DNA of 64,000 bases from Patescibacteria group bacterium (GTDB lineage Bacteria; Patescibacteriota; JACPGU01). Under the pieces are notes generated by a model. It saw only the letters and a list, made by a program, of their open reading frames with translations. It searched no databases and was not told the DNA's origin. The stretch's first letter is position 1. Each line of letters begins with the position of its first letter. The position numbers and the translations under genes are program-made. The DNA lies in contig JAQULF010000003.1 of assembly GCA_028718745.1 (NCBI GenBank), forward strand, positions 160 through 64,159. The letters run 5' to 3'. This document shows positions 2,073 through 43,248 of the stretch, one piece after another.

Positions 2073-3083
2073 TTACGCAATCTGCAATTGTTCCTGAAAA
2101 CTTCTTTTCTCCCGTTTTTCTATATCCATAACAGTTATAAATAAATCGGGCTTCTCATCTATTTCCCTCAATCTCTTCTCGGAAATCTTTACATATTTTT
2201 CATTTACATCAATGCCAATATAATTTTTCCCTAATTTCTTCGCCGCCATAGCGGTCGTCCCACTACCGACAAAAGGATCTAGCACAACTGCATTCTTTGA
2301 AAAAACCGACAATTTAATTAAATATTCGCAAATTGCTAATGGCTTAACAGTTTTGTGATCATTATATTCTCCTTTTTCTTTTTTGGTTGGTTTCGGCAAT
2401 AAAAAAGTTTTATCTATCAACTCATTGATGCTTTCAACAGTAAATACATTAGCAGGATACATATTATCATCGCCAATCCTTACATTAGTATTGAATAATC
2501 CCACTTCATATTTGAGCATATTATTGAGATATGTTTGACTAGTAGGTTTTTGCGCCATTGCTATAGGTTCGAAACATGATTTTATCTGCGGCGTTTTCCA
2601 GCCACTTAACTTTTCTTTAATTTCTTCTTTATCTTTTTCATCAGCATTCATTTTATTAATGAAATGGTCAACTCCCATCGCCTTAGCTTGATTTTGAGTG
2701 TAAAGCCACATGAAAGAGTCTCTGATTTCAAAACCGGCATCATCAATCGCTGAGGCCATTCTGTGATATAACCTTGGACTAGAAAATGAAAAGAAAAAAC
2801 CTCCGGGCTTTAGAACTCGGAAAATTTCTTCCGAGATTTTTAAATACCAAGTGTAAAATTTTCTACCCTGTTCTCGATCAAATTTCATGCCAGCCGGAAG
2901 CGATGTTACAACTTGCTGATTATTTTGATTCGACACTTCGTCATAATCCCAATTATTATCCAGTTTATCTAAAAAATATGGGGGGTCTGTCAAAACAACA
3001 TCGATAGAATCATTTTCAATTTGAGATAATAATTCCAAGGCATCACTGCAAATTATATTGTTTAAAAATTTACTGTTTTTCAT
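2073..3083 (-). CDS. Type II DNA methyltransferase, beta-class (N6-adenine or N4-cytosine)
   Basis: Motif IV VVLTDPPYF near the N-terminus and motif I VVLDPFVGSGTTAMAA near the C-terminus (IV-before-I order = beta-class amino-MTase); overlaps the upstream ORF by ATGA. Confidence 0.8.
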   Translation of the reverse strand: MKNSKFLNNIICSDALELLSQIENDSIDVVLTDPPYFLDKLDNNWDYDEVSNQNNQQVVTSLPAGMKFDREQGRKFYTWYLKISEEIFRVLKPGGFFFSFSSPRLYHRMASAIDDAGFEIRDSFMWLYTQNQAKAMGVDHFINKMNADEKDKEEIKEKLSGWKTPQIKSCFEPIAMAQKPTSQTYLNNMLKYEVGLFNTNVRIGDDNMYPANVFTVESINELIDKTFLLPKPTKKEKGEYNDHKTVKPLAICEYLIKLSVFSKNAVVLDPFVGSGTTAMAAKKLGKNYIGIDVNEKYVKISEKRLREIDEKPDLFITVMDIEKREKRSFQEQLQIA

Positions 3084-6337: not shown

Positions 6338-8026
6338 TTACATTTTTTCTCTCGCTTCGATTCCCATCAAAGCAAGGCAATCTTTTAAAACGACCTCGGT
6401 CGCTTTTATTATTTTAAGGCGAATAGCTTCTCTCTCATCGCCGATAATTCGGCAATTATCATAAAATTTATGAAATTCAGTCGCAATCTCATGCGCGAAA
6501 AATGGGATTTTATAAACCTGATAATTCTCACCCACTTCTTTAATTAACTCCGGGTATTGGGAAAGTTTTTTAATTAAATTAATTTCGTATTTAAAATTTT
6601 GATTTTGGAGTGACGGACGATAGTCCGTTATCTTTCCTGTGACAGACTTTCGTCTGTCATTCCGATTAATCTTCGAGAGTACGCTATGTATCCTAGCTGA
6701 CGCATACTGAACATAAAATACCGGGTTCCTCGAGCTCTGCTCTTTTGCCAAATCCAAATCTATATCAATATGATGCCCATAATCTTTTGAAATGAAAAAG
6801 TAGCGGGCTGATTCTAAACTCATCTCCTCCGCTGCTTCGCGAAGAGTGATGAAATTCCCCTTTCTCTTGCTCATCCTGACTTCCTTGCCGCCCTGCATGA
6901 GATGAACCAGTTGAAAAATGATTAAATCCAGTTTGCCTTCATGCTTTAAAATTTTTGCGACAGCTTGCAATCTCCCCACATAACCATGATGATCGGCTCC
7001 GAGAAAAATAATAATTTTACCAAATTTTCGTTGTGAGAACCTTTCATAAAGATAAGCGACATCCGACATTAAATAAGTGAAATTACCATCGGTCGTTTTT
7101 ACTACGCGATCTTTTTCGTCGCCATATTCGGAAGTTTTCAACCAATAAGCTCCTTCGTTTTCATAAACCAGATTCTTGGCTTTAAAAAAATCCCACATTT
7201 TATAAACCAGTTTCTCTTTGAAAAGGATTGATTCGGTAAACCAGCGATCAAACTTGATCCCGAGAAACTTTACATCTTTTTTTATAAATTCATCGAGAAT
7301 TATTTTCGCCGCCATCTCTCCTGTTCTCTCATAGTTTCGCCTGATCCATTCAATTCCTTTTTGCTTTTTTATTTTTCGCGCCACTACATCAATATATTCT
7401 CCGCCATAAATGTCTTCGCCTTCCACTGTTTCGATTTCTAAATCCAAATTTTTATAAACTGACTTAGCTAAAATTTTAACCTGATTTCCGGCATCATTCA
7501 CATAATACTCGCGTTTAATATTATAGCCGTTTTTTGCCAAAACATTCGAAAGCGTATCACCGGAAAATCCTCCCCTGCCGTTTCCAAGAGTTAATGGTCC
7601 GGTGGGATTGGCGGAAATGAATTCAACTTGAATTTTCTTCTCCTTGCCGGAATTATTTGAACCATACTTGCTTTTTTCTTTTAAAATGTTGCTTAATTCT
7701 TTCAAATAAACTGATGAATTTAAAAAGAAATTGACATATCCGTCGCAAGCCTCAACTTTTGCGATTTCTTTGGCGGGCGTTAAATTTAACGCCCCTACGA
7801 TTTCGCCGGCGATATCTCTTGGATTTCTTTTTAACTGTTTAGCGAGAATGAACGATATATTCGTCGCAAAATCTCCATACCCCTCCCTCTCCGGCACAGA
7901 AATATCGTATTGATCAATTTCAACTTTGAAAAGTTTTTTGACAACCTTATCGATTTGTTTGCGAAGTAATTCTTTCATGGTATTTTTATAGAGGATCCTT
8001 TCTCCACTTGTCTTTAGCAAATTCAT
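6338..8026 (-). CDS. argS: Arginine--tRNA ligase
   Basis: Class I HIGH-like region SANPTGPLTLGNGRG, Arg-tRNA synthetase core FLGADHHGYVGRL, MSKRKGN (KMSK-like), C-terminal DALR-type anticodon-binding region; contains a 23-aa in-frame insertion encoded by a REPIN-like repeat (see findings). Confidence 0.9.
   Translation of the reverse strand: MNLLKTSGERILYKNTMKELLRKQIDKVVKKLFKVEIDQYDISVPEREGYGDFATNISFILAKQLKRNPRDIAGEIVGALNLTPAKEIAKVEACDGYVNFFLNSSVYLKELSNILKEKSKYGSNNSGKEKKIQVEFISANPTGPLTLGNGRGGFSGDTLSNVLAKNGYNIKREYYVNDAGNQVKILAKSVYKNLDLEIETVEGEDIYGGEYIDVVARKIKKQKGIEWIRRNYERTGEMAAKIILDEFIKKDVKFLGIKFDRWFTESILFKEKLVYKMWDFFKAKNLVYENEGAYWLKTSEYGDEKDRVVKTTDGNFTYLMSDVAYLYERFSQRKFGKIIIFLGADHHGYVGRLQAVAKILKHEGKLDLIIFQLVHLMQGGKEVRMSKRKGNFITLREAAEEMSLESARYFFISKDYGHHIDIDLDLAKEQSSRNPVFYVQYASARIHSVLSKINRNDRRKSVTGKITDYRPSLQNQNFKYEINLIKKLSQYPELIKEVGENYQVYKIPFFAHEIATEFHKFYDNCRIIGDEREAIRLKIIKATEVVLKDCLALMGIEAREKM
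6604..6665. repeat. REPIN-like paired-hairpin palindromic element, copy 1 (inside argS coding sequence, in-frame)
   Basis: tttggagtGACGGACgataGTCCGTta ... tGACAGACtttcGTCTGTCattcc: two hairpins in inverted orientation, same family as copies at 27936, 36685, 37084 and 43165. Confidence 0.7.
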
Positions 8027-23648: not shown

Positions 23649-25277
23649 ATGTTTTCTTTATTTGCAAAAAAAGCAATACCGGTTAAAGAAAGAATCACCA
23701 AAAAACCGCATCCGGTTGTTCTAATTATTTTGGACGGTTATGGTATCTCTCCTATTCGCGAAGGAAATGCAGTCTGGAATGCCAATACACCCAATCTGGA
23801 TTCTTACGAAAAAAAATACCCAAAAGCGCTTTTGCATACGGCTGGAAATGAAGTTGGCCTTCCTTATGGTGAATTTGGCAATAGCGAAGTTGGACATTTA
23901 AATATTGGTTCGGGTCGAGTAGTTTATCAGCCATTGCTGCGAGTTTCCAATGAAATTGAAGCTGGAAATTTATATAACAACGAGGCGATGGACGGCATCA
24001 AAAAACATCTTAAAAAAACCGGGGGTGCATTGCATCTGATGGGACTTCTCTCCCCCGGCGGCGTTCATTCTCATATTGAACATCTTTTTGCAATTCTTGA
24101 TTGGTGCAAAGATAACAAAATCAAGAAAATATTTATTCATGTTTTTACCGACGGAAGGGATGCCCCGCAAAAATCCGGCGCGGAATACATAGAAGATTTA
24201 ATTAAAAAAATTGAAGAGCTAAATATCAATGCTCAAATAGCCTCTCTCTCCGGACGATATTTTGCTATGGATAGAGATCGCCACTGGGATAGATTAAAAA
24301 AGGCTTATCAGGCCTGGATTGGAACGGGGAAAAATAGAAACGATAATCCTTCCGATGCAATCACTGAAAGCTACAAAGAGAAAAAAACGGATGAATTTCT
24401 AGATCCCGTTGTTATAACCGATAAAGATGGCAAACCACTGGGGCCAATATCTGGCGGGAATGCTTTATTAATGTTCAACCTTCGTCCGGACAGATCTCGC
24501 CAAACCTTAATGTCTTTTGTAAGCAACTCATTTGGCAGTTTCAAAACTAAAAAAATTGACGATCTTTTTGTGGCAACCTTGACCGAATATGATCCAAAGC
24601 TAAAAGCAAAAGTGGTATTCCCGGAAAAAGATATTAAAAATCCCTTGGGCGAGATATTATCAAAAAAAGGTCTGAAACAATTTCATATTGCCGAAACAGA
24701 AAAATACGCGCATGTCACTTATTTCTTTAACGGCGGCCGAGAAAAACCTTTCAAGGGAGAAACCAGAGTTATAGTCCCTTCGCCTTCTGTTCCAACTTAT
24801 GATAAAAAACCGGAAATGAGCTGTGAAAAAATTGCTATCAGAGTTTTGGAAGAATTGGAAAAAGGAAAAGAAGATTTTTTCGTAATTAATTTTGCCAATG
24901 CCGATATGGTCGGACATACCGGAAATTATAAAGCGATTCTAAAAGCCGTGGAAGCGGTTGATCAATGTGTTGGAAAAATAGTCGAAAAAACTTTGATCCT
25001 TGGCGGAGCAGCAATAATCACAGCCGATCATGGCAATGCCGAAGAAACTATTAATTCTCAATCGAGCGAAAAAGACACGGAACATAATATCTATCCGGCT
25101 CCTTTTATTGTCATCAGCCACGATTTGGAAAATAAAAAAGAAACCTTGAACTTCAAAGAAGCTATTTCCGAACCGATTGGTTCGCTAGCTGACATAGCAC
25201 CAACTATTTTGGATTTAATGGGAATAGAACAACCTACGGATATGACGGGGATAAGTTTGTTGAACAGCTTGAAATAA
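23649..25277 (+). CDS. gpmI: 2,3-bisphosphoglycerate-independent phosphoglycerate mutase
   Basis: HPVVLIILDGYG, GNSEVGHLNIGSGR, LSPGGVHSH, FTDGRD - canonical iPGM motifs. Confidence 0.9.
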   Translation: MFSLFAKKAIPVKERITKKPHPVVLIILDGYGISPIREGNAVWNANTPNLDSYEKKYPKALLHTAGNEVGLPYGEFGNSEVGHLNIGSGRVVYQPLLRVSNEIEAGNLYNNEAMDGIKKHLKKTGGALHLMGLLSPGGVHSHIEHLFAILDWCKDNKIKKIFIHVFTDGRDAPQKSGAEYIEDLIKKIEELNINAQIASLSGRYFAMDRDRHWDRLKKAYQAWIGTGKNRNDNPSDAITESYKEKKTDEFLDPVVITDKDGKPLGPISGGNALLMFNLRPDRSRQTLMSFVSNSFGSFKTKKIDDLFVATLTEYDPKLKAKVVFPEKDIKNPLGEILSKKGLKQFHIAETEKYAHVTYFFNGGREKPFKGETRVIVPSPSVPTYDKKPEMSCEKIAIRVLEELEKGKEDFFVINFANADMVGHTGNYKAILKAVEAVDQCVGKIVEKTLILGGAAIITADHGNAEETINSQSSEKDTEHNIYPAPFIVISHDLENKKETLNFKEAISEPIGSLADIAPTILDLMGIEQPTDMTGISLLNSLK

Positions 25278-25389
25278 AAGATAAAATATAAAAAATAAAA
25301 AACAAGAATTAAAAACTTAAAAATAGATTTATTTTTGCATATTTAAGTATTTGTTTTTTATCTTTTATTTTTAATTTTTTATATTTCTA

Positions 25390-27609: not shown

Positions 27610-27935
27610 ACCCCCTCCCATTTTTTTTCTTCTTCTTTTCTTTTTTTCTCGATTCGGCGGATCCTATTTCCCCTTCTGCGCGCCGCTCTTATTTCTTCAT
27701 TTGTCAGAAGACGCCCCTTCCTTTTCACTTCTTCTTCCGGATACAGGCTTTTCGGTAAAAAAGATGCTCTTTCCACCGGAACCATTCTTCTCCATGAGCG
27801 CTGGTATCTGTTTATTTCTGCCGCTCTCATTTCCCCTGCTTTTGCAAGTGCAGAATTTCTCTTCAAATCACTCACCTCCTTTGTTAAATGACATTTTTTC
27901 TTATTCTATCAAAAAAATATATTTATATCAAATCT

Positions 27936-27997
27936 TTGGAATGACGAACGATAGTTCGTTAATTTGAAAATGACAGACTATCGTCTGTCACTCCAAA
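27936..27997. repeat. REPIN-like paired-hairpin palindromic element, copy 2 (intergenic, downstream of recJ)
   Basis: tttggaatGACGAACgataGTTCGTtaa ... aaTGACAGACtatcGTCTGTCActccaaa. Confidence 0.7.
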
Positions 27998-29845: not shown

Positions 29846-29900
29846 TACTTACTACTTACTACTTACTACTTACTACTTACTACTTACTATTTACTACTTC
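29846..29900. repeat. Heptanucleotide satellite (TACTTAC)x6 + 2 degenerate units abutting the ftsQ stop codon
   Basis: tacttac x6 (29846-29887), then tatttac tacttc; on the mRNA strand this is (GTAAGTA)n beginning with the TAG stop. Confidence 0.8.
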
Positions 29901-30790
29901 ACTATCACTCTTCCATTCACCGACAAGATCACATATTCCGTAATCTTTTCTCCTTGTTGAAAAACTTTGGATAACTTATCCAATTGCTCAACTACATCAG
30001 CTCCGGTATCAAAAACTATATAGAAGCCGCTATTTACATGCGCTTTCAATTCGAAGGTTGTTTGGTTGATGCTGTAGATTGTAATCCCAAGGCCAAATCT
30101 TTTTTTCAAACTCTCATCTACTACATTAACGAAATCGATAAATTCTTTGGTAACAATGCGATCTCCAACTTTTACAGGTAATCCCGCCTGATCAATTATG
30201 GTGGGCATTTTTAAATCTTCCTTCATGTCAGACATAACATAACCATTATTGTCTAGAAGATATTTGCTTTCCCCCACTTGCCAAATAATAGTACTGGGTT
30301 TTTCTTGTATTTTGATTTTTAATTTCGATGGAAACACTTTGTAAACTCTGACATCATCTATTCTTTTGTAATAATCCAGCAATACATTTTTTACCTGGCT
30401 GGTATTAAGCAAAAAAAGATTTTTATTGTTGATGTTTCTTTCTTCAAGAAACTTAACTATATCTCCCTCCAATAATATCTGATTATTTACCACGACTATC
30501 TTTTTTATCTTAAAAACTTCCGAGAAAAGCAAAACATAAGCGATACCGGCTAAGCAAAGTAAAACAAAAAGTATTTTCCAGTATGGAATGTAAAGTTTTT
30601 TTTCTGGTCGGCCAAAAACCTCGTTGGCATAATGTTTGGGAACGCTTTTACCTTTGCGAGATTTGAGATGAAAAGATAATCCAAATCTTTTTTGTTTGGC
30701 ACCCTTGTAAATATCTACTCGCTGTTTTCTGGTAATCTGGTTTTTGTTTCTCCGTCGGAACATTTTATTATCCCTCCAAAAACTTTTCAC
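29894..30790 (-). CDS. ftsQ: Cell division protein FtsQ/DivIB-like (TM + POTRA)
   Basis: Basic N-tail, single TM (ILFVLLCLAGIAYVLLF), POTRA-like region, position at end of dcw cluster after murC. Confidence 0.6.
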   Translation of the reverse strand: MKSFWRDNKMFRRRNKNQITRKQRVDIYKGAKQKRFGLSFHLKSRKGKSVPKHYANEVFGRPEKKLYIPYWKILFVLLCLAGIAYVLLFSEVFKIKKIVVVNNQILLEGDIVKFLEERNINNKNLFLLNTSQVKNVLLDYYKRIDDVRVYKVFPSKLKIKIQEKPSTIIWQVGESKYLLDNNGYVMSDMKEDLKMPTIIDQAGLPVKVGDRIVTKEFIDFVNVVDESLKKRFGLGITIYSINQTTFELKAHVNSGFYIVFDTGADVVEQLDKLSKVFQQGEKITEYVILSVNGRVIVK

Positions 30791-32310: not shown

Positions 32311-32345
32311 TACTTACTACTTACTACTTACTACTTACTACTTAC
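32311..32345. repeat. Heptanucleotide satellite (TACTTAC)x5 overlapping the murG stop and last codons
   Basis: tacttac x5 at 32311-32345; encodes ...SK* of MurG then continues into the murG-murC spacer. Confidence 0.8.
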
Positions 32346-33480
32346 TACCCGCTACCATTCCCAATATCTCCTCGGCTATAATATGCGCGCTATTTTCCGG
32401 AAAAATGTTTTTCATATTTTTTACCATAGAGTCTCTCGTTTTCTTGTCTTTCATCAAAAAATCTATTTCTTCATATAGTTTTTCAGCGGTTAAAAGATTT
32501 TCGTCCAATACTGATGCGATTTCATTTTTCTGTAGAAATTTTGCATTCTTGTTTTGATGATCGGCAGCGGCAGATGATAAGGGAATCAAAATCGCCGGTT
32601 TTTTTAAAGCAACAATCTCTGCAATTGAATTTGCCCCGGCGCGACTTACAACCAAATCGGTATTATTCAAAAAATCTTTTAGCTCTTCTTTCGCGTAACC
32701 AAACTCCAAATATCTTTCTCGTTCCGGCTTGCTTAATAATGAACGCTTATCCCTGAAGTATTCTTCATTATTTTTTCCGGTTTGGTGAATAAGATTGTAG
32801 TTGGCAAGAATTTTATTTAACAATTCATCGATCAATTCATTAATTCTTCCCGAACCTTGGCTTCCTCCCAAAACAAAAATAATTTTTTTTGTTTTATCTA
32901 AACCGTATTGTTGAAAAAAGTTTTTCTTATCGCTTTTTATATTCAGAAGTTCTTTTCTTACCGGATTTCCGCTAAAATAAGTTTTCTTTATAGAAATTCC
33001 CTTGTAGATATCAACCGGAAAACCAAGATAGACTTTCTTAGCAAATGGCAAAAGTATTTTATTGGATAATCCTATTACAGAATCCGATTCATGAATAACA
33101 AAAGGTATTCGCAATAATGCAGCTGCCAAGCAAAAAGGTACAGTGACAAACCCTCCCTTGGCAAAAATAATATCTGGTCGATTAAATAACAAGATAAAAA
33201 AAGATTGAACAAATCCAATCAACATCAAAAAAATATCGCTGAAGTTTTTTATGTCAAAATATCTTCGAAGCTTTCCCGTAAAAATGCCCTTATATCTCAA
33301 GCCGTATGTCCCGATCAATTCTTGCTCAATGCCATGTCGGCGGCCTATATACAAAAAATCAACGCTAACATTTTTAGCTTTGGATATTTTTACCAGCTCA
33401 TCAATGATCGCAAGATTGGGAGCCACATGACCGGCCGTCCCACCACCTACGAAGATTATTTTAAAATGTTTTTCTTCCAT
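32338..33480 (-). CDS. murG: UDP-N-acetylglucosamine--N-acetylmuramyl-(pentapeptide) pyrophosphoryl-undecaprenol N-acetylglucosamine transferase
   Basis: FVGGGTAGHVAPNLAI (G-loop), GT28 C-terminal GGSQGS. Confidence 0.9.
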   Translation of the reverse strand: MEEKHFKIIFVGGGTAGHVAPNLAIIDELVKISKAKNVSVDFLYIGRRHGIEQELIGTYGLRYKGIFTGKLRRYFDIKNFSDIFLMLIGFVQSFFILLFNRPDIIFAKGGFVTVPFCLAAALLRIPFVIHESDSVIGLSNKILLPFAKKVYLGFPVDIYKGISIKKTYFSGNPVRKELLNIKSDKKNFFQQYGLDKTKKIIFVLGGSQGSGRINELIDELLNKILANYNLIHQTGKNNEEYFRDKRSLLSKPERERYLEFGYAKEELKDFLNNTDLVVSRAGANSIAEIVALKKPAILIPLSSAAADHQNKNAKFLQKNEIASVLDENLLTAEKLYEEIDFLMKDKKTRDSMVKNMKNIFPENSAHIIAEEILGMVAGSK

Positions 33481-36124: not shown

Positions 36125-36652
36125 TTATAACTTATATTTTTCTTTTATCATTTTTGCAACTTTCTTTGCGGAAATCTTAGTATTATCTATATTTAAGTTT
36201 TTAACAAAAGGAATCGGTAAAAATAAATTAAATTCTTTCAAACAACTATTTAGTTTTTTGGCTGTTCTTATTTTGCCATGATATTTTCTGGATTCCCCAA
36301 CAACTCTTTTGCATAACTCTTTTTTATCGCTATAAAGCTGGGCGAAACAAATTTTCCCATTATATTTTTTAACCTTTCTTATAACATCCTTCACAAATTT
36401 GTCATCATGATCGCGCACATAACAAAAAGTAAAAATCAGATTAACATTGTTCTTAGCTGCTAACTCTATCATCTCTAATCGAAGTCGCGAGGAAATTTCA
36501 AAAAAGTTTTTTTCGCCAAATTTAAGTACAGAGGTTATTAGATCTACTGTTAGGTGATTATGAAAAACCTTATAACCAGTAAGCTTTGCTAACTCCTTTG
36601 CGACTGTTAATTTTCCCGTTGCCGGCGGTCCATAAATAAAAACTAAGTTCAT
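36125..36652 (-). CDS. P-loop kinase-like protein (AAA_33/CPT-like)
   Basis: Walker A IYGPPATGKLTVA at N-terminus; ~175 aa; inserted within the dcw cluster. Confidence 0.4.
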   Translation of the reverse strand: MNLVFIYGPPATGKLTVAKELAKLTGYKVFHNHLTVDLITSVLKFGEKNFFEISSRLRLEMIELAAKNNVNLIFTFCYVRDHDDKFVKDVIRKVKKYNGKICFAQLYSDKKELCKRVVGESRKYHGKIRTAKKLNSCLKEFNLFLPIPFVKNLNIDNTKISAKKVAKMIKEKYKL

Positions 36653-36684
36653 AAATTTTATTTTAATTCTTTTTTCATTTTATT

Positions 36685-36756
36685 TGACAAACTATCGTTT
36701 GTCACTCCAAAATTCATGATTATCGCATTTGGAATGACGGACGACAGTCCGTTATC
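36685..36756. repeat. REPIN-like paired-hairpin palindromic element, copy 3 (intergenic, immediately downstream of RAYT gene)
   Basis: tGACAAACtatcGTTTGTCActccaaa - 16-nt spacer - tttggaatGACGGACgacaGTCCGTtatc. Confidence 0.7.
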
Positions 36757-36767
36757 TTTTCTTAATT

Positions 36768-37394
36768 TTAATCTTCTATATTTATATCATTCGCGGGATA
36801 ATAATAAAAGCAATCAAACAAAAAATCTTTTCCTCTTTTTGTTAGCCAATGCTTGTAACTGCAAAAATTAAAATTTTCCAATTCCTCAAAATTTTTTACC
36901 AAACCGTGCTTTATTGGATTTTGGTGAATATAATTGAATATCTTAAAGAAATCTCGTTCGCCTCTTATGCAATAATCCCAATACTGATAAAATACTTTTC
37001 TTCCCTCACAATCGTCCATCTTATTTAAAACTCTCGCAATCGAAGAATTCAAACGATTTGCGAAATAGGAAATCTTTTTTTGTTTGACAGCCTTACGGCT
37101 GTCATTCCAAGGATTTTCTAAAAAATCTAGCATACCACTGTTTGTATTTGGAGTGACACCCGTGAGGGTGTCGTCCTCAATAGAGTTTAACTTTAGCAAC
37201 AAATGATAATGGTTTTTCATTATCGCAAAAGCATAAAGTGAAATTCCTAATTCTTTAATTAAGTTGTTAATTATGTTTAAAATTATTCCCTCTCTTCCGG
37301 AAAAATAATTTTTCTTTTCAAAACACCTTGTTGTTAAAAAATAAACTTCATTTTCTAATTCTAAATGAAACGGCCTGTGCTTATTTGATTTCAT
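36768..37394 (-). CDS. IS200/IS605-family Y1 (HUH) transposase, REP-associated tyrosine transposase (RAYT)-like
   Basis: HUH motif NHYHLLL; C-terminal catalytic-Tyr motif NYIHQNPIKHGLV (YIxxNPVkaGLV of Y1_Tnp); HUH-to-Tyr spacing inflated by ~33 aa that are encoded by a REPIN-like element (37084-37176). Confidence 0.7.
   Translation of the reverse strand: MKSNKHRPFHLELENEVYFLTTRCFEKKNYFSGREGIILNIINNLIKELGISLYAFAIMKNHYHLLLKLNSIEDDTLTGVTPNTNSGMLDFLENPWNDSRKAVKQKKISYFANRLNSSIARVLNKMDDCEGRKVFYQYWDYCIRGERDFFKIFNYIHQNPIKHGLVKNFEELENFNFCSYKHWLTKRGKDFLFDCFYYYPANDINIED
37084..37176. repeat. REPIN-like paired-hairpin element, copy 4 (variant with compensatory stem changes), in-frame inside the RAYT gene
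   Basis: ttGACAGCCttacGGCTGTCattccaagg ... tttggagtGACACCCgtgaGGGTGTCgtc; conserved flanks TTGACAG...GTCATTCCAA and TTTGGAGTGAC...GTC. Confidence 0.55.
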
Positions 37395-38431: not shown

Positions 38432-38548
38432 AGTATAAAAAATTAAAAATAAAATATAAAAAATAAATATTTAAATACATAAAAACAAAAATATTTTTAA
38501 ATTTTTAATTTGTGTTTTTTATTTTTGATATTTTATTTTTTTATATTC

Positions 38549-40798: not shown

Positions 40799-40861
40799 AT
40801 CTATATTATACCAAGAAAATGAACTATTCGCCAATTTCCGGGCGCGGGCACCGCGCCCCTA

Positions 40862-40896
40862 CTTAATACTTAATACTTACTACTTACTACTTAACC
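40862..40896. repeat. Heptanucleotide satellite (CTTAATA)x2-(CTTACTA)x2-CTTAACC abutting the ftsI stop
   Basis: Same unit family (phase-shifted TACTTAC) as at 29846 and 32311. Confidence 0.75.
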
Positions 40897-42665
40897 AAAC
40901 CCTTCTCTCTTTTTATCTGCTCTTCCTTCCAAACATCATCCGGTGGTATCTGGTAATAATTCAAAATATTCGCCGCTAATTCTCCGAATATAGGAGCTGC
41001 CGTAGATTCCGCCCAGATTACATCGCGAGGTACATTAATTCTGGTTACAATCACAAAAAGCGGATTATCGGTCGGGCCAAAACCAATAAAGGAACCGATA
41101 AATTTATCTGTTTCGTATCCTCGAAAATCTTTCTTGGGAATCTGCGCCGTACCGGTTTTACCACCAATTCTGTAGCCCTTTACTCGAGCTTGTTTCCCAT
41201 GGCCTCTCTCGGCAACACTAATCATCATATCCGTTATTTCATGGGCTGACTTTTCGCTTAAAACTCTGCCGATCACTTGCGGCTCTACTTTTTCTACTTT
41301 ACCATTTTTATCAATATATTCTTTTACAATATGTGGTTTTACCATCAACCCCCCATTTGCCACCGCGCCCATAGATTGCGCCAACTGAACCTCGGTTGTG
41401 TTAATACCCTGGCCAAAAGACATTGTCGCCAAATCAACCGGTATAGCATCTTCTTGAGGCTTCACGGCGCCCGGAGATTCACCGTCAATTTCAATCCCCG
41501 TTCTTTTGCCAAAACCAAAATTATTTATATATTTATAAAAATTATCCGTACCGGTTTTTTGCGTCATCCAAACCATTCCCACATTATCAGAGTTTTCCAA
41601 AACTTGAGTCATAGTCTCATAACCATAGGGTCTCTTGACACTATTCCAAATAACCGCATCCTGAACCTGAACTTTGGCATCAAAATATTCTCCCGTATCC
41701 GGCGTTACCGCTCCGCTATCGATACCGGCTGTCATCGCGATTAATTTAAAAACCGATCCCGGTTCATAAGCATCGGCTGTCGCCATACATTGGAAAACGC
41801 TATAATCTTTAACTTCCGTATATTTTGCCGGTTCATAAGTTGGAAATTCGGCTAGAGCCAGGATTCCGCCGCTTTTGGGGTCCATCACCACGATTGAGCC
41901 GCTATCCGCTTTATGCTGTTCAACCGCTCTGGCAATAATATCTTCTGCGTAATACTGAATTACATGGTCAATCGTAAGAACTACATCTTTACCATTTTTA
42001 GGTAGCACAACTTTACTATCAGCCACTGTTATCTGGCGACCCAAAATATCTCTTTCGGAAATCAATTTGCCCTGCTCTCCCTTGAGAACATCATTCAAAT
42101 ATCCCTCAACTCCATATTGTCCCTCTCCTTGATTATCGACAAAACCAAGAAACTTTGCCCCCATACTCCCTTCCGGGTAATCCCTGTAGGTTTCGGGAAT
42201 CAAAACAACTCCAGGCAGCTTCAAATCCTCAATCTTTTTGCTAATCTCATCGCTTAGCTTCCTTTTTAAGGGCGGAATATAAACTTTTTTTTCAGAGAGT
42301 AATTGATTGATTTCTCCGGCTGGCATGTCAATTATCGGACCCAGCTTACTAGCTAAGTCAGCCGCATCTTCCACTTGATTAGGAATTATCATTACCGACC
42401 AGAGAGTTTTATTAGTTACTAGGGGAAATTTGGTATCGCTATATATATCGGTAACAAATATCTCCCCTCTGGCCGGCATTATCTTTTCTTCTTTGTATCT
42501 TTGATTGTAGGCTAGCTCTTGGTAGTGGGAATATTTGATAATTTGTTTTTCAAAAAGACGAACTCCGATTATCCCAAAAAGCCCCATCACAACAATAAAA
42601 ACGATAAATATTCTCGCTTTTATATTCCCCTGCTCTTCAATTCTTATATTATTACTCCCCCACAT
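40887..42665 (-). CDS. ftsI: Class B penicillin-binding protein (FtsI/PBP2-type transpeptidase)
   Basis: N-terminal TM, SxxK (GSVFKL), SDN (ENSDNVG), KTGT; dcw synteny. Confidence 0.85.
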   Translation of the reverse strand: MWGSNNIRIEEQGNIKARIFIVFIVVMGLFGIIGVRLFEKQIIKYSHYQELAYNQRYKEEKIMPARGEIFVTDIYSDTKFPLVTNKTLWSVMIIPNQVEDAADLASKLGPIIDMPAGEINQLLSEKKVYIPPLKRKLSDEISKKIEDLKLPGVVLIPETYRDYPEGSMGAKFLGFVDNQGEGQYGVEGYLNDVLKGEQGKLISERDILGRQITVADSKVVLPKNGKDVVLTIDHVIQYYAEDIIARAVEQHKADSGSIVVMDPKSGGILALAEFPTYEPAKYTEVKDYSVFQCMATADAYEPGSVFKLIAMTAGIDSGAVTPDTGEYFDAKVQVQDAVIWNSVKRPYGYETMTQVLENSDNVGMVWMTQKTGTDNFYKYINNFGFGKRTGIEIDGESPGAVKPQEDAIPVDLATMSFGQGINTTEVQLAQSMGAVANGGLMVKPHIVKEYIDKNGKVEKVEPQVIGRVLSEKSAHEITDMMISVAERGHGKQARVKGYRIGGKTGTAQIPKKDFRGYETDKFIGSFIGFGPTDNPLFVIVTRINVPRDVIWAESTAAPIFGELAANILNYYQIPPDDVWKEEQIKREKGLVK

Positions 42666-43164: not shown

Positions 43165-43235
43165 TAGACAGACTGTCGTCTGTCATTCCAAAATTCAGGA
43201 TTAGCATTTGGAGTGACGGACGATAGTCCGTTATG
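43165..43235. repeat. REPIN-like paired-hairpin palindromic element, copy 5 (ftsL-rsmH spacer)
   Basis: taGACAGACtgtcGTCTGTCattccaaa - 12-nt spacer - tttggagtGACGGACgataGTCCGTtatg. Confidence 0.7.
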
Positions 43236-43248
43236 TTTTTAAAATTTC

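Follow-up and report, generated by a model that had tools for sequence, protein, structure and literature searches.

The window analysed here, 64 kb of a 64,258-bp contig from an NCBI metagenome-assembled genome (MAG) labelled "Patescibacteria group bacterium", carries a gene resembling those for the REP-associated tyrosine transposases (RAYTs, or TnpAREP) together with five inverted pairs of short hairpins that resemble repetitive extragenic palindromes (REPs). RAYT/REP systems are well described (PMC2817692, PMC3116915, PMC5581495), and both REPs and RAYTs are on record well beyond the Proteobacteria. The window RAYT gene (36768..37394, minus strand, locus tag PHU42_01760) encodes a 208-aa HUH/Y1-type protein and is located in a minus-strand run of housekeeping genes with the order rluA, mazG-like gene, RAYT, P-loop gene, and murD. 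Its start codon is 1 nt from the end of the mazG-like gene, which leaves no room for a REP, and none was found upstream of the RAYT in the window; on the other side, a 115-nt gap separates the stop codon (36768) from the start of the next gene (36652). A single RAYT copy is present in the 64 kb and there is no tnpB near it. The rluA-RAYT-murD order is shared with a relative (L118), with identities of 85% for RluA and 70% for both RAYT and MurD, and this synteny argues for vertical descent at a fixed locus. The position within a housekeeping operon shows signs of being that of a domesticated host gene.

The RAYT open reading frame (ORF) is intact, with HYHLLL at residues 62–67 and YIHQNPIKHGLV at residues 155–166, as an earlier reading by a model (the sequence-only reading) had reported for this 208-aa minus-strand protein. 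The HUH residues H62 and H64, the catalytic Y155, and N159 of the Y-x3-N motif are invariant in 18 of 18 aligned homologues. Pfam Y1_Tnp (PF01797) matches at 28.1 bits, above its cut-off of 23, and the assignment to the Y1 transposases made by that reading is thereby borne out; the match is confined to the N-terminal half, and after deletion of a 35-aa insert (described below) it rose to 37.4 bits with the full length of the model covered. NCBIfam REP_Tyr_transpos (NF047646) is the best model, at 67.6 bits (74.8 without the insert), so the narrower identification as a RAYT agrees with the ranking of the models, although the score stays under the curated cut-off of 80. Relatives without inserts score 79–103 bits against NF047646, and four of the five tested pass its cut-off (P0010, P0028, P0037, and P0071, at 84–103 bits). 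Identity to close relatives is 75–81% in the core and 22–38% in the insert.

A search of the PDB with a profile of the family gave Escherichia coli TnpAREP (4ER8) as the best match (E = 1.2e-13), as compared with 5e-5 for ISDra2 TnpA and 5e-5 or worse for the IS200/IS605 transposases. The core of the AlphaFold model has a predicted local distance difference test (pLDDT) score >90 in most 10-residue blocks, and Foldseek again placed 4ER8 at the top (template modelling (TM) score 0.71, root mean squared deviation 3.6 Å); IS200-family matches reached TM scores of up to 0.68, with deviations of ~10–15 Å for the top-ranked ones. By sequence and by its predicted fold, the window RAYT is nearer to TnpAREP than to the TnpA of IS200/IS605 elements, and its assignment to the REP-associated (RAYT/TnpAREP) branch of the Y1/HUH enzymes is supported.

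The same results bear on the alternative that the locus is an autonomous IS200/IS605-type insertion sequence, or holds miniature inverted-repeat or palindrome-associated derivatives of one (MITE/PATE), with the hairpins as left and right ends. Such elements share the fold and the Pfam family, and that family is typified by subterminal hairpins. However, the IS200 equivalog model gives only 17.8 bits against a cut-off of 55, tnpB is lacking, the single RAYT copy in the window abuts housekeeping genes (at 1-nt spacing upstream) in a position that is syntenic in a relative at 70% identity, and the hairpins form many short doublets that enclose no gene. We regard this explanation as extremely improbable.

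The RAYT motif set consists of NHYH, WYQYWD (F-Y-Q-Y-W-D in the window protein), and YIHQNP. In E. coli TnpAREP, the GTAG guide is contacted by W94, Q95, W99, E100, H101, and R104 (PMC6006769, PMC8266576), and in the alignment with 4ER8 these positions are occupied here by F/W, Y, W, D, Y, and R, respectively. Judged from this alignment, the changed residues would fit a guide sequence other than GTAG.

The hairpins form a well defined family. A pattern search for the half-site yielded five matches in the window as compared with 0.29 expected, and none of 100 shuffles reached five. A covariance model (R1) was built from 24 half-sites, 10 from the window and the rest from close relatives, and was run over the window with filters off. 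It returned 10 half-sites at 38–47.5 bits, all of which are among the copies used to build it, and no further copies, the next best match in the window being 13.8 bits. The five paired copies claimed by the sequence-only reading are thus confirmed, as 10 half-sites that form five inverted doublets with ~9–37 nt between half-sites and no singletons. A search of Rfam found no family for them, the sole match in the window being a tRNA.

Each REP is a 27–34-nt hairpin of the form 5'-TTTGGA(G/A)T-GAC NNN C-GNNA-G NNN GT(C/T)-A, with a perfect stem of 7–8 bp, a GNNA tetraloop, and a 5' foot, TTGGA[G/A]T, found in 10 of 10 copies. The foot, the three base pairs at the base of the stem, and the closing C-G pair are invariant; the three inner stem positions vary, each always jointly with its pairing partner. 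Over the 24 half-sites, 97.9% of cells pair and 23 cells are changed on both sides, with GC/AU at 13:11, AU/CG at 18:6, and six pair types at the third position. The covariation score was reached in none of 500 shuffles, and controls with a slid partner pair in ≤39% of cells, so the compensatory stem variants that had been read from the letters are real. Folds of the doublets as single-stranded DNA gave z-scores of −3.7 to −7.6. Because the inner stem covaries freely while the foot and the stem base are fixed, recognition is probably by shape plus foot.

Two subtypes are present and alternate within the doublets. Subtype A (GACGGAC...GTCCGTT followed by a conserved ATCTT tail) lies on the plus strand in all four doublets of that type, and subtype B (GACAGAC...GTCTGTC-A) lies on the minus strand; the GTC ending given for the half-site by the sequence-only reading therefore holds for one subtype, the other ending in GTT with the ATCTT tail. 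Between 28 and 48 kb the GC skew is strongly negative, and the strand bias of the subtypes rests on four cases, too few to conclude from. Every hairpin pairs with itself rather than with the partner arm, and the two arms of a doublet carry different stem variants. The feet point outward in the doublets at 6604 and 27935 and inward in those at 36685, 37084, and 43165.

Three of the doublets are intergenic. The first (36685..36758; half-sites 36685–36711, minus, and 36728–36758, plus, with the ATCTT tail; feet inward) begins 12 nt after the RAYT stop codon. The second (27935..27997; half-sites 27935–27961, plus, and 27971–27997, minus; feet outward) lies 53 nt past the stop codon of recJ (28050), and the third (43165..43237; half-sites 43165–43192, minus, and 43207–43237, plus; feet inward) fills the gap ~12 nt downstream of rsmH/mraW (stop 43249). 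All three are found between co-directional minus-strand genes, just 3' of a stop codon. The doublets at 36685 and 43165 are highly similar, spacer and flanks included, which suggests on sequence grounds that doublets can be copied as units. A −35/−10-like match (GTGACA, 17 nt, TAAAAT; 36677–36705, minus strand), by consensus only, is supplied by the RAYT-adjacent REP just upstream of the 175-aa P-loop gene that starts at 36652.

Relatives were used to follow the association of hairpin and enzyme. A profile search with the family collected 5,287 protein clusters (90% identity) at E ≤ 1e-3; the best-scoring matches with a named taxon are nearly all Patescibacteria, Parcubacteria, or Buchananbacteria, the exceptions among the top named matches being one archaeal MAG and one record labelled "bacterium", and these matches are annotated as "transposase", as "hypothetical protein", or, at the Joint Genome Institute (JGI), as RayT. 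The family alignment, used to scan JGI metagenomes, gave 80 further loci, and the JGI loci, the window, and the contigs of close relatives were combined into 84 non-redundant, mostly metagenomic loci. Across these, GGAnT-footed hairpins occur at 1.97/kb within 400 nt of a RAYT, 0.48/kb inside the gene, and 0.11/kb elsewhere, making the density near RAYTs ~18-fold higher than in distant sequence. Such hairpins are found at or in the RAYT gene at 43 of the 84 loci; hairpins with a permuted foot are absent or nearly so, and GTAG-footed ones lie near the RAYT at 11 loci. When the 5 nt in front of all perfect 7-bp hairpins near RAYTs were counted without bias towards any foot, GGAGT ranked first (62 of 419), with 14 for the next most frequent. 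This RAYT clade is generally REP-associated. Run on 84 other loci, R1 gave few matches; distant relatives use other stem bases (GTC, GGC).

These data also bear on whether the hairpins could be host regulatory elements, spread by recombination and close to a Y1 gene by coincidence, that act as stabilisers of mRNA 3' ends, attenuators, weak terminators, promoter parts, or protein-binding sites. All three intergenic doublets follow directly on stop codons between co-directional genes, a placement as for transcribed REPs (PMC3733652), their loops are GNNA/GNRA-like, one half-site resembles a terminator, and another provides the promoter-like match noted above. Against this, the terminator-like site is on the non-transcribed strand of the local genes, terminator and promoter consensus counts are no higher than in shuffled sequence, and two of the five doublets lie within genes and are translated. 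An 18-fold enrichment of same-footed hairpins at RAYTs in many lineages would, moreover, be unexpected for a generic signal. A purely regulatory origin is accordingly judged highly improbable; REPs can be co-opted by the host after RAYT-driven spread, and a regulatory role is compatible with that spread.

The other two doublets are within coding sequence, which the sequence-only reading had overlooked: it had correctly located copies at 37084 and 6604 and one immediately downstream of the RAYT, but the 37084 copy lies inside the RAYT gene, in frame, rather than adjoining it, and the 6604 copy is likewise intragenic. The in-gene doublet of the RAYT (37084..37175; half-sites 37084–37111, minus, and 37147–37175, plus; stems GACAGCC/GGCTGTC and GACACCC/GGGTGTC) encodes approximately residues 70–104 (SIEDDTLTGVTPNTNSGMLDFLENPWNDSRKAVKQ). 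In the alignment of the 18 homologues, this insert directly follows the HUH strand and so falls between the HUH motif and the catalytic tyrosine, and the distance from the HUH motif to the conserved YWD, 38 aa in most family members, is 71 aa in the window RAYT. In the AlphaFold model, the insert (~70–105) is mostly unstructured (pLDDT <50) and connects strand 62–68 with helix 107–126. The sequence-only reading had also named a single-copy RAYT flanked by the repeats as a point to check; one copy is found in the 64 kb, with a REP on one side and another inside the gene and none upstream.

The second intragenic doublet (6604..6666; 63 nt; half-sites 6604–6630, plus, and 6640–6666, minus; feet outward) lies in argS, the gene for arginyl-tRNA synthetase (6338..8026, minus strand, 562 aa), all three ArgS Pfam domains of which are intact. 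It is in frame, and its translation, NRNDRRKSVTGKITDYRPSLQ, forms part of a loop in the DALR anticodon-binding domain, at a point where the ArgS of a relative (L123, 64% identical) has a shorter, unrelated loop. Only one of its six reading frames is free of stops and this is the frame in use, as expected after post-insertion selection. The head of the minus-orientation REP is read as S-L-Q in argS and as (V/A)-T-P in all RAYT inserts, a constant register that could reflect a shared ancestral insertion or a fixed register of insertion.

Of the family members, ~12–23% carry an insert, either at the post-HUH site or at a second one that precedes the WYQYWD strand. Four relatives, P0002, P0003, and P0004 (59–70% identity) and P0006 (47%), carry REPs at the same in-gene site as the window RAYT, with encoded peptides such as SVTPNTN...WNDGRQSV (P0002) and IGMTSRKGVGI (P0006). 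The in-gene stem of P0006 (GACATCCC...GGGTGTC) is identical to that of the REP just downstream of the RAYT in the same genome. The inserts of P0002 and P0003 translate nearly like the minus strand of the window doublet at 43165 (HNGLSSVTPNANPEFWNDRRQSV), which indicates that a whole doublet lies in these two genes. At four loci (L123, L120, L202, and L127) the insert matches the REPs flanking its own locus; that of L127 has many 11-mers in common with its two flanks and a copy at a distance of 1 kb, and the RAYT of L120 has REPs on both sides. At least five lineages retain an open frame despite carrying an insert.

REPs of relatives occur singly and in tandem arrays as well as in doublets. Eight direct copies of a GGAGT hairpin with a 57-nt period run up to the contig end in L192 (1675–2074), five copies surround the RAYT in L172 (9880–10635), and seven are found in L151 (74–1261); the RAYTs of these three loci are distant relatives (~30–36% identity). 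Several related contigs end in such arrays, which probably break metagenomic assemblies. A degenerate REP pattern applied to 596 Gb of genome contigs has too few specified bases and returned mostly chance matches. After a check of the stems and scoring with R1, only those in L022 (Magasanikbacteria), L034 (Parcubacteria), L100, and L021 looked real, and none of these four has a RAYT within 8 kb of the REP. Two of them lie in records from outside the candidate phyla radiation (CPR): a single REP scoring 43 bits by R1 in Flavobacterium sp. RSB2_4_14 (L021, 3742–3775), and one scoring 34 bits next to a tRNA gene in a 'Candidatus Methylomirabilis' MAG contig (L100, 4060–4093). Chance, horizontal transfer, or mis-binned contigs could account for these non-CPR copies.

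Taken together, we consider it very probable that the window holds a REP/RAYT system in a genome of the Patescibacteria (CPR). The observed basis for this is an intact TnpAREP-like enzyme, hairpins that covary on a fixed foot, a spatial association of the two across lineages, and copies in harmless places. Several points weigh against it. The RAYT scores below the curated NCBIfam cut-off with or without its insert. The stems of its in-gene REPs (GCC/CCC) differ from those of the four dispersed doublets (GGAC/AGAC), which may mean that the in-gene REPs are old relics that no longer serve as substrates. No exact 16-mer of the REP is found more than twice in the 64 kb; stem variation and an unrelated heptamer array, which dominates the 16-mer table, make the count uninformative at this scale, and 16-mer abundance in the sense of Bertels et al. 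is not demonstrated by it. The RAYT has a REP on one side only in the window, copy number is judged from the 64 kb alone, and a close relative, L123, has only two REPs in 20 kb, so that high abundance is not general. Two relatives with in-gene REPs look like pseudogenes, L166 (1947–2577) with a frameshift inside the insert and L126 (1577–2062) with an in-frame TAG and NYYH in place of NHYH; assembly error is possible in both, and the insert can coincide with decay. These broken copies imply that an open frame is kept by selection and not guaranteed by the mechanism. Finally, cleavage, strand preference, and the cleavage site are inferred by homology.

Several of these points would also fit a fossil system, in which the RAYT was inactivated by its own in-gene doublet and the dispersed hairpins are inert, either drifting or kept for host purposes. 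The doublet does interrupt the catalytic domain between the HUH motif and the tyrosine, and the low NCBIfam score, the unlike in-gene stems, and the disrupted genes of L166 and L126 point the same way. The ORF is nevertheless open with all catalytic residues intact, and in the model the core is confident and the insert forms a disordered loop linking the HUH strand to the helix that follows, in a region that Quentin et al. place away from the DNA-binding and catalytic sites (PMC6006769). Moreover, core identity is 75–81%, open frames that include an insert survive in at least five lineages, and the doublets and spacers at 36685 and 43165 are still very similar, suggesting a fairly recent duplication. 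A fossil system is therefore considered unlikely.

Under the favoured explanation of a REP/RAYT system, mobilisation of the REPs would be driven by the RAYT, and a mechanism can be modelled on the E. coli, Stenotrophomonas, and Marinomonas systems and on IS608/ISDra2 (PMC3479197, PMC8266576). The enzyme would be a TnpAREP-type HUH/Y1 nuclease-ligase for single-stranded DNA, with a short hairpin bearing the single-stranded 5' foot TTGGA[G/A]T as its presumed substrate. It would bind the folded hairpin and foot where DNA is single-stranded, as, for instance, in the lagging-strand template, cut beside the hairpin by Tyr155 via a 5'-phosphotyrosine intermediate, and rejoin the strands, so that REPs are excised, inserted, or duplicated, mostly as inverted doublets. 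Copies would persist at sites where their cost is low, in the short gaps that follow operon genes and in surface loops of proteins; survival in a loop would require a stop-free insert with a length that is a multiple of 3 nt, and this tolerance would explain the in-frame doublets in argS and the RAYT.

Comparison with the nearest relative of solved structure, E. coli TnpAREP (RayT/YafM) and its REPs and bacterial interspersed mosaic elements (BIMEs) (PDB code 4ER8; PMC3479197, PMC8266576; subclass 2.2, or Bertels group 2), reveals a shared HUH/Y1 fold and chromosomal housekeeping context, hairpins with a conserved single-stranded 5' foot located between co-directional genes, and inverted pairs of two subtypes, as in the Y and Z REPs of BIMEs. 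The two differ in the foot (GGA[G/A]T in the window, GTAG in E. coli), in the stems (short, perfect, 7–8 bp with a tetraloop as compared with long and bulged), and at the GTAG-contact positions, where Q95/E100/H101 of E. coli correspond to Y/D/Y in WYQYWDY. The window RAYT also has a REP-encoded insert that the E. coli enzyme lacks, and the identity between them is only ~14–20%.

In their in-frame siting, the REPs have closer precedents. In-frame REPs within tnpAREP, between HuH and Y, were described as a "unique feature" of subclass 2.4 by Quentin, Siguier, Chandler & Fichant in 2018 (PMC6006769), a subclass that corresponds to RAYT group 4 of Bertels et al. 2017. The window system resembles it in this feature, in having a REP next to the gene, and in the scattered taxonomic distribution, but differs in signature (NH[IFV]H / WQ / YIxNNP in subclass 2.4 (PMC6006769 Table 1), NHYH / W-Y-Q-Y-W-D / YIHQNP here) and in its REPs, those of subclass 2.4 being GT[AG]G-footed and long or 'double-foot' and those of the window GGAGT-footed and short. 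Of the window motifs, YIH[QN]NP is a signature of subclass 2.6 and NHYH of subclasses 2.3 and 2.8 (PMC6006769); compared by motif signatures alone, the set as a whole matches none of the 12 TnpAY1 subclasses (PMC6006769 Table 1). The canonical 5' GT[AG]G guide is likewise not found, the foot being TTGGA[G/A]T in every window copy. Intragenic in-frame REPs, in tRNA-synthetase genes among others, and the Rickettsia palindromic elements (RPE) were described by Di Nocera et al. 2013 (PMC3733652). The window doublets are similar to these in-frame palindromes of housekeeping genes, which are often dimers coding for 20–30 aa and tolerated in loops, but belong to another repeat family than the GTAG- or CGTC-tagged REPs and RPE, and they occur in a CPR host, the genome of which is small and has very short gaps between genes.

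The REPIN organisation of Pseudomonas fluorescens (Bertels & Rainey 2011, PMC3116915), which the sequence-only reading had proposed for these repeats, is seen in part. As in REPINs, a short spacer separates an inverted pair of REPs, none of the 10 REPs of the window lacks a partner, and one spacer is common to two doublets. Unlike in REPINs, however, each REP has its own stem variant and pairs with itself, the arms are not fully complementary, and head-in and head-out doublets both occur; high copy number is typical of REPINs, whereas five doublets are found in the 64 kb. The strict REPIN model, in which the doublet is the replicating unit, is only partly supported, because each arm is self-complementary, doublets come in two arrangements, and relatives have REPs singly and in arrays.

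The novelty claimed at the outset survives in part. No paper joining RAYTs or REPs with CPR or Patescibacteria was found in a literature search of an incomplete library, an absence of evidence only, and no CPR genome is among those named in Quentin et al. 2018 (PMC6006769). The overall novelty had been overstated, REPs and RAYTs being known outside the Proteobacteria too and REPs translated inside transposase genes and tRNA-synthetase genes having already been published (PMC6006769, PMC3733652). What appears to be new is the CPR host lineage, the GGAGT foot (as compared with the published GTAG and CGTC), and the unmatched protein motifs NHYH / YIHQNP, possibly amounting to a new subclass with a new REP foot. 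A further-reaching proposal is that the Patescibacteria RAYTs form a large undescribed subclass of TnpAREP that has co-evolved with a third kind of REP (the GGAGT foot), and that the in-gene REP is a maintained cis element, which would serve, for example, in self-regulation or as a protected master copy. Two hints are available for such maintenance: the hairpin is perfect while the encoded amino acids vary (S..A, I..D, G..S, at paired codons), and the head is in the same frame (V/A-T-P) across RAYTs that are only 31–70% identical. We put this forward tentatively, as a possible but rather doubtful extension.

Other repeats were observed in the window. Tandem heptamer arrays of 5–8 copies each, TACTTAC on the plus strand and GTAAGTA on the minus strand, are found at 29846–29904, 32311–32348, and 40860–40894. 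GTAAGTA arrays give stops in all three frames and lie at the 3' ends of the minus-strand ORFs 29894..30790, 32338..33480, and 40887..42665, with a GC-rich hairpin (40840–40859) after one of them; they may represent a signal that recurs at gene ends, or a further family of small repeats. An AT-rich inverted repeat of 108 nt (25276–25383 and 38434–38541; 87% complementary, arms 13 kb apart) has one arm directly upstream of a 708-aa ORF (25390, plus strand) and the other directly upstream of rluA (38431, minus strand), in the same orientation relative to the gene. Each arm has an internal 7-nt periodicity, and the pair could be a duplicated promoter/leader region or another mobile element. Between 50600 and 59900, several long, diverged families of direct repeats (100–180 nt, 60–86% identity) lie within large ORFs and have the appearance of modules repeated in large surface or secreted proteins. 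Three occurrences of the 16-mer TAAAAACAAAAAATGA or its reverse complement (at 3080, 44173, and 44984) may reflect a shared translation-start context.

CPR genomes are ~1 Mb in size and heavily streamlined, with little intergenic space. A REP/RAYT system in this window, which we have judged very probable, would extend the REP/RAYT partnership to the candidate phyla radiation, where persistent selfish or semi-domesticated repeats are unexpected in genomes so streamlined, and the repeats would be housed in part within proteins, namely an essential aminoacyl-tRNA synthetase and the transposase itself. In annotated CPR proteins, the REPs show up as insertions that look spurious. The GGAGT foot and the altered residues at the GTAG-contact positions would jointly make a natural comparison in the study of guide recognition by these enzymes.

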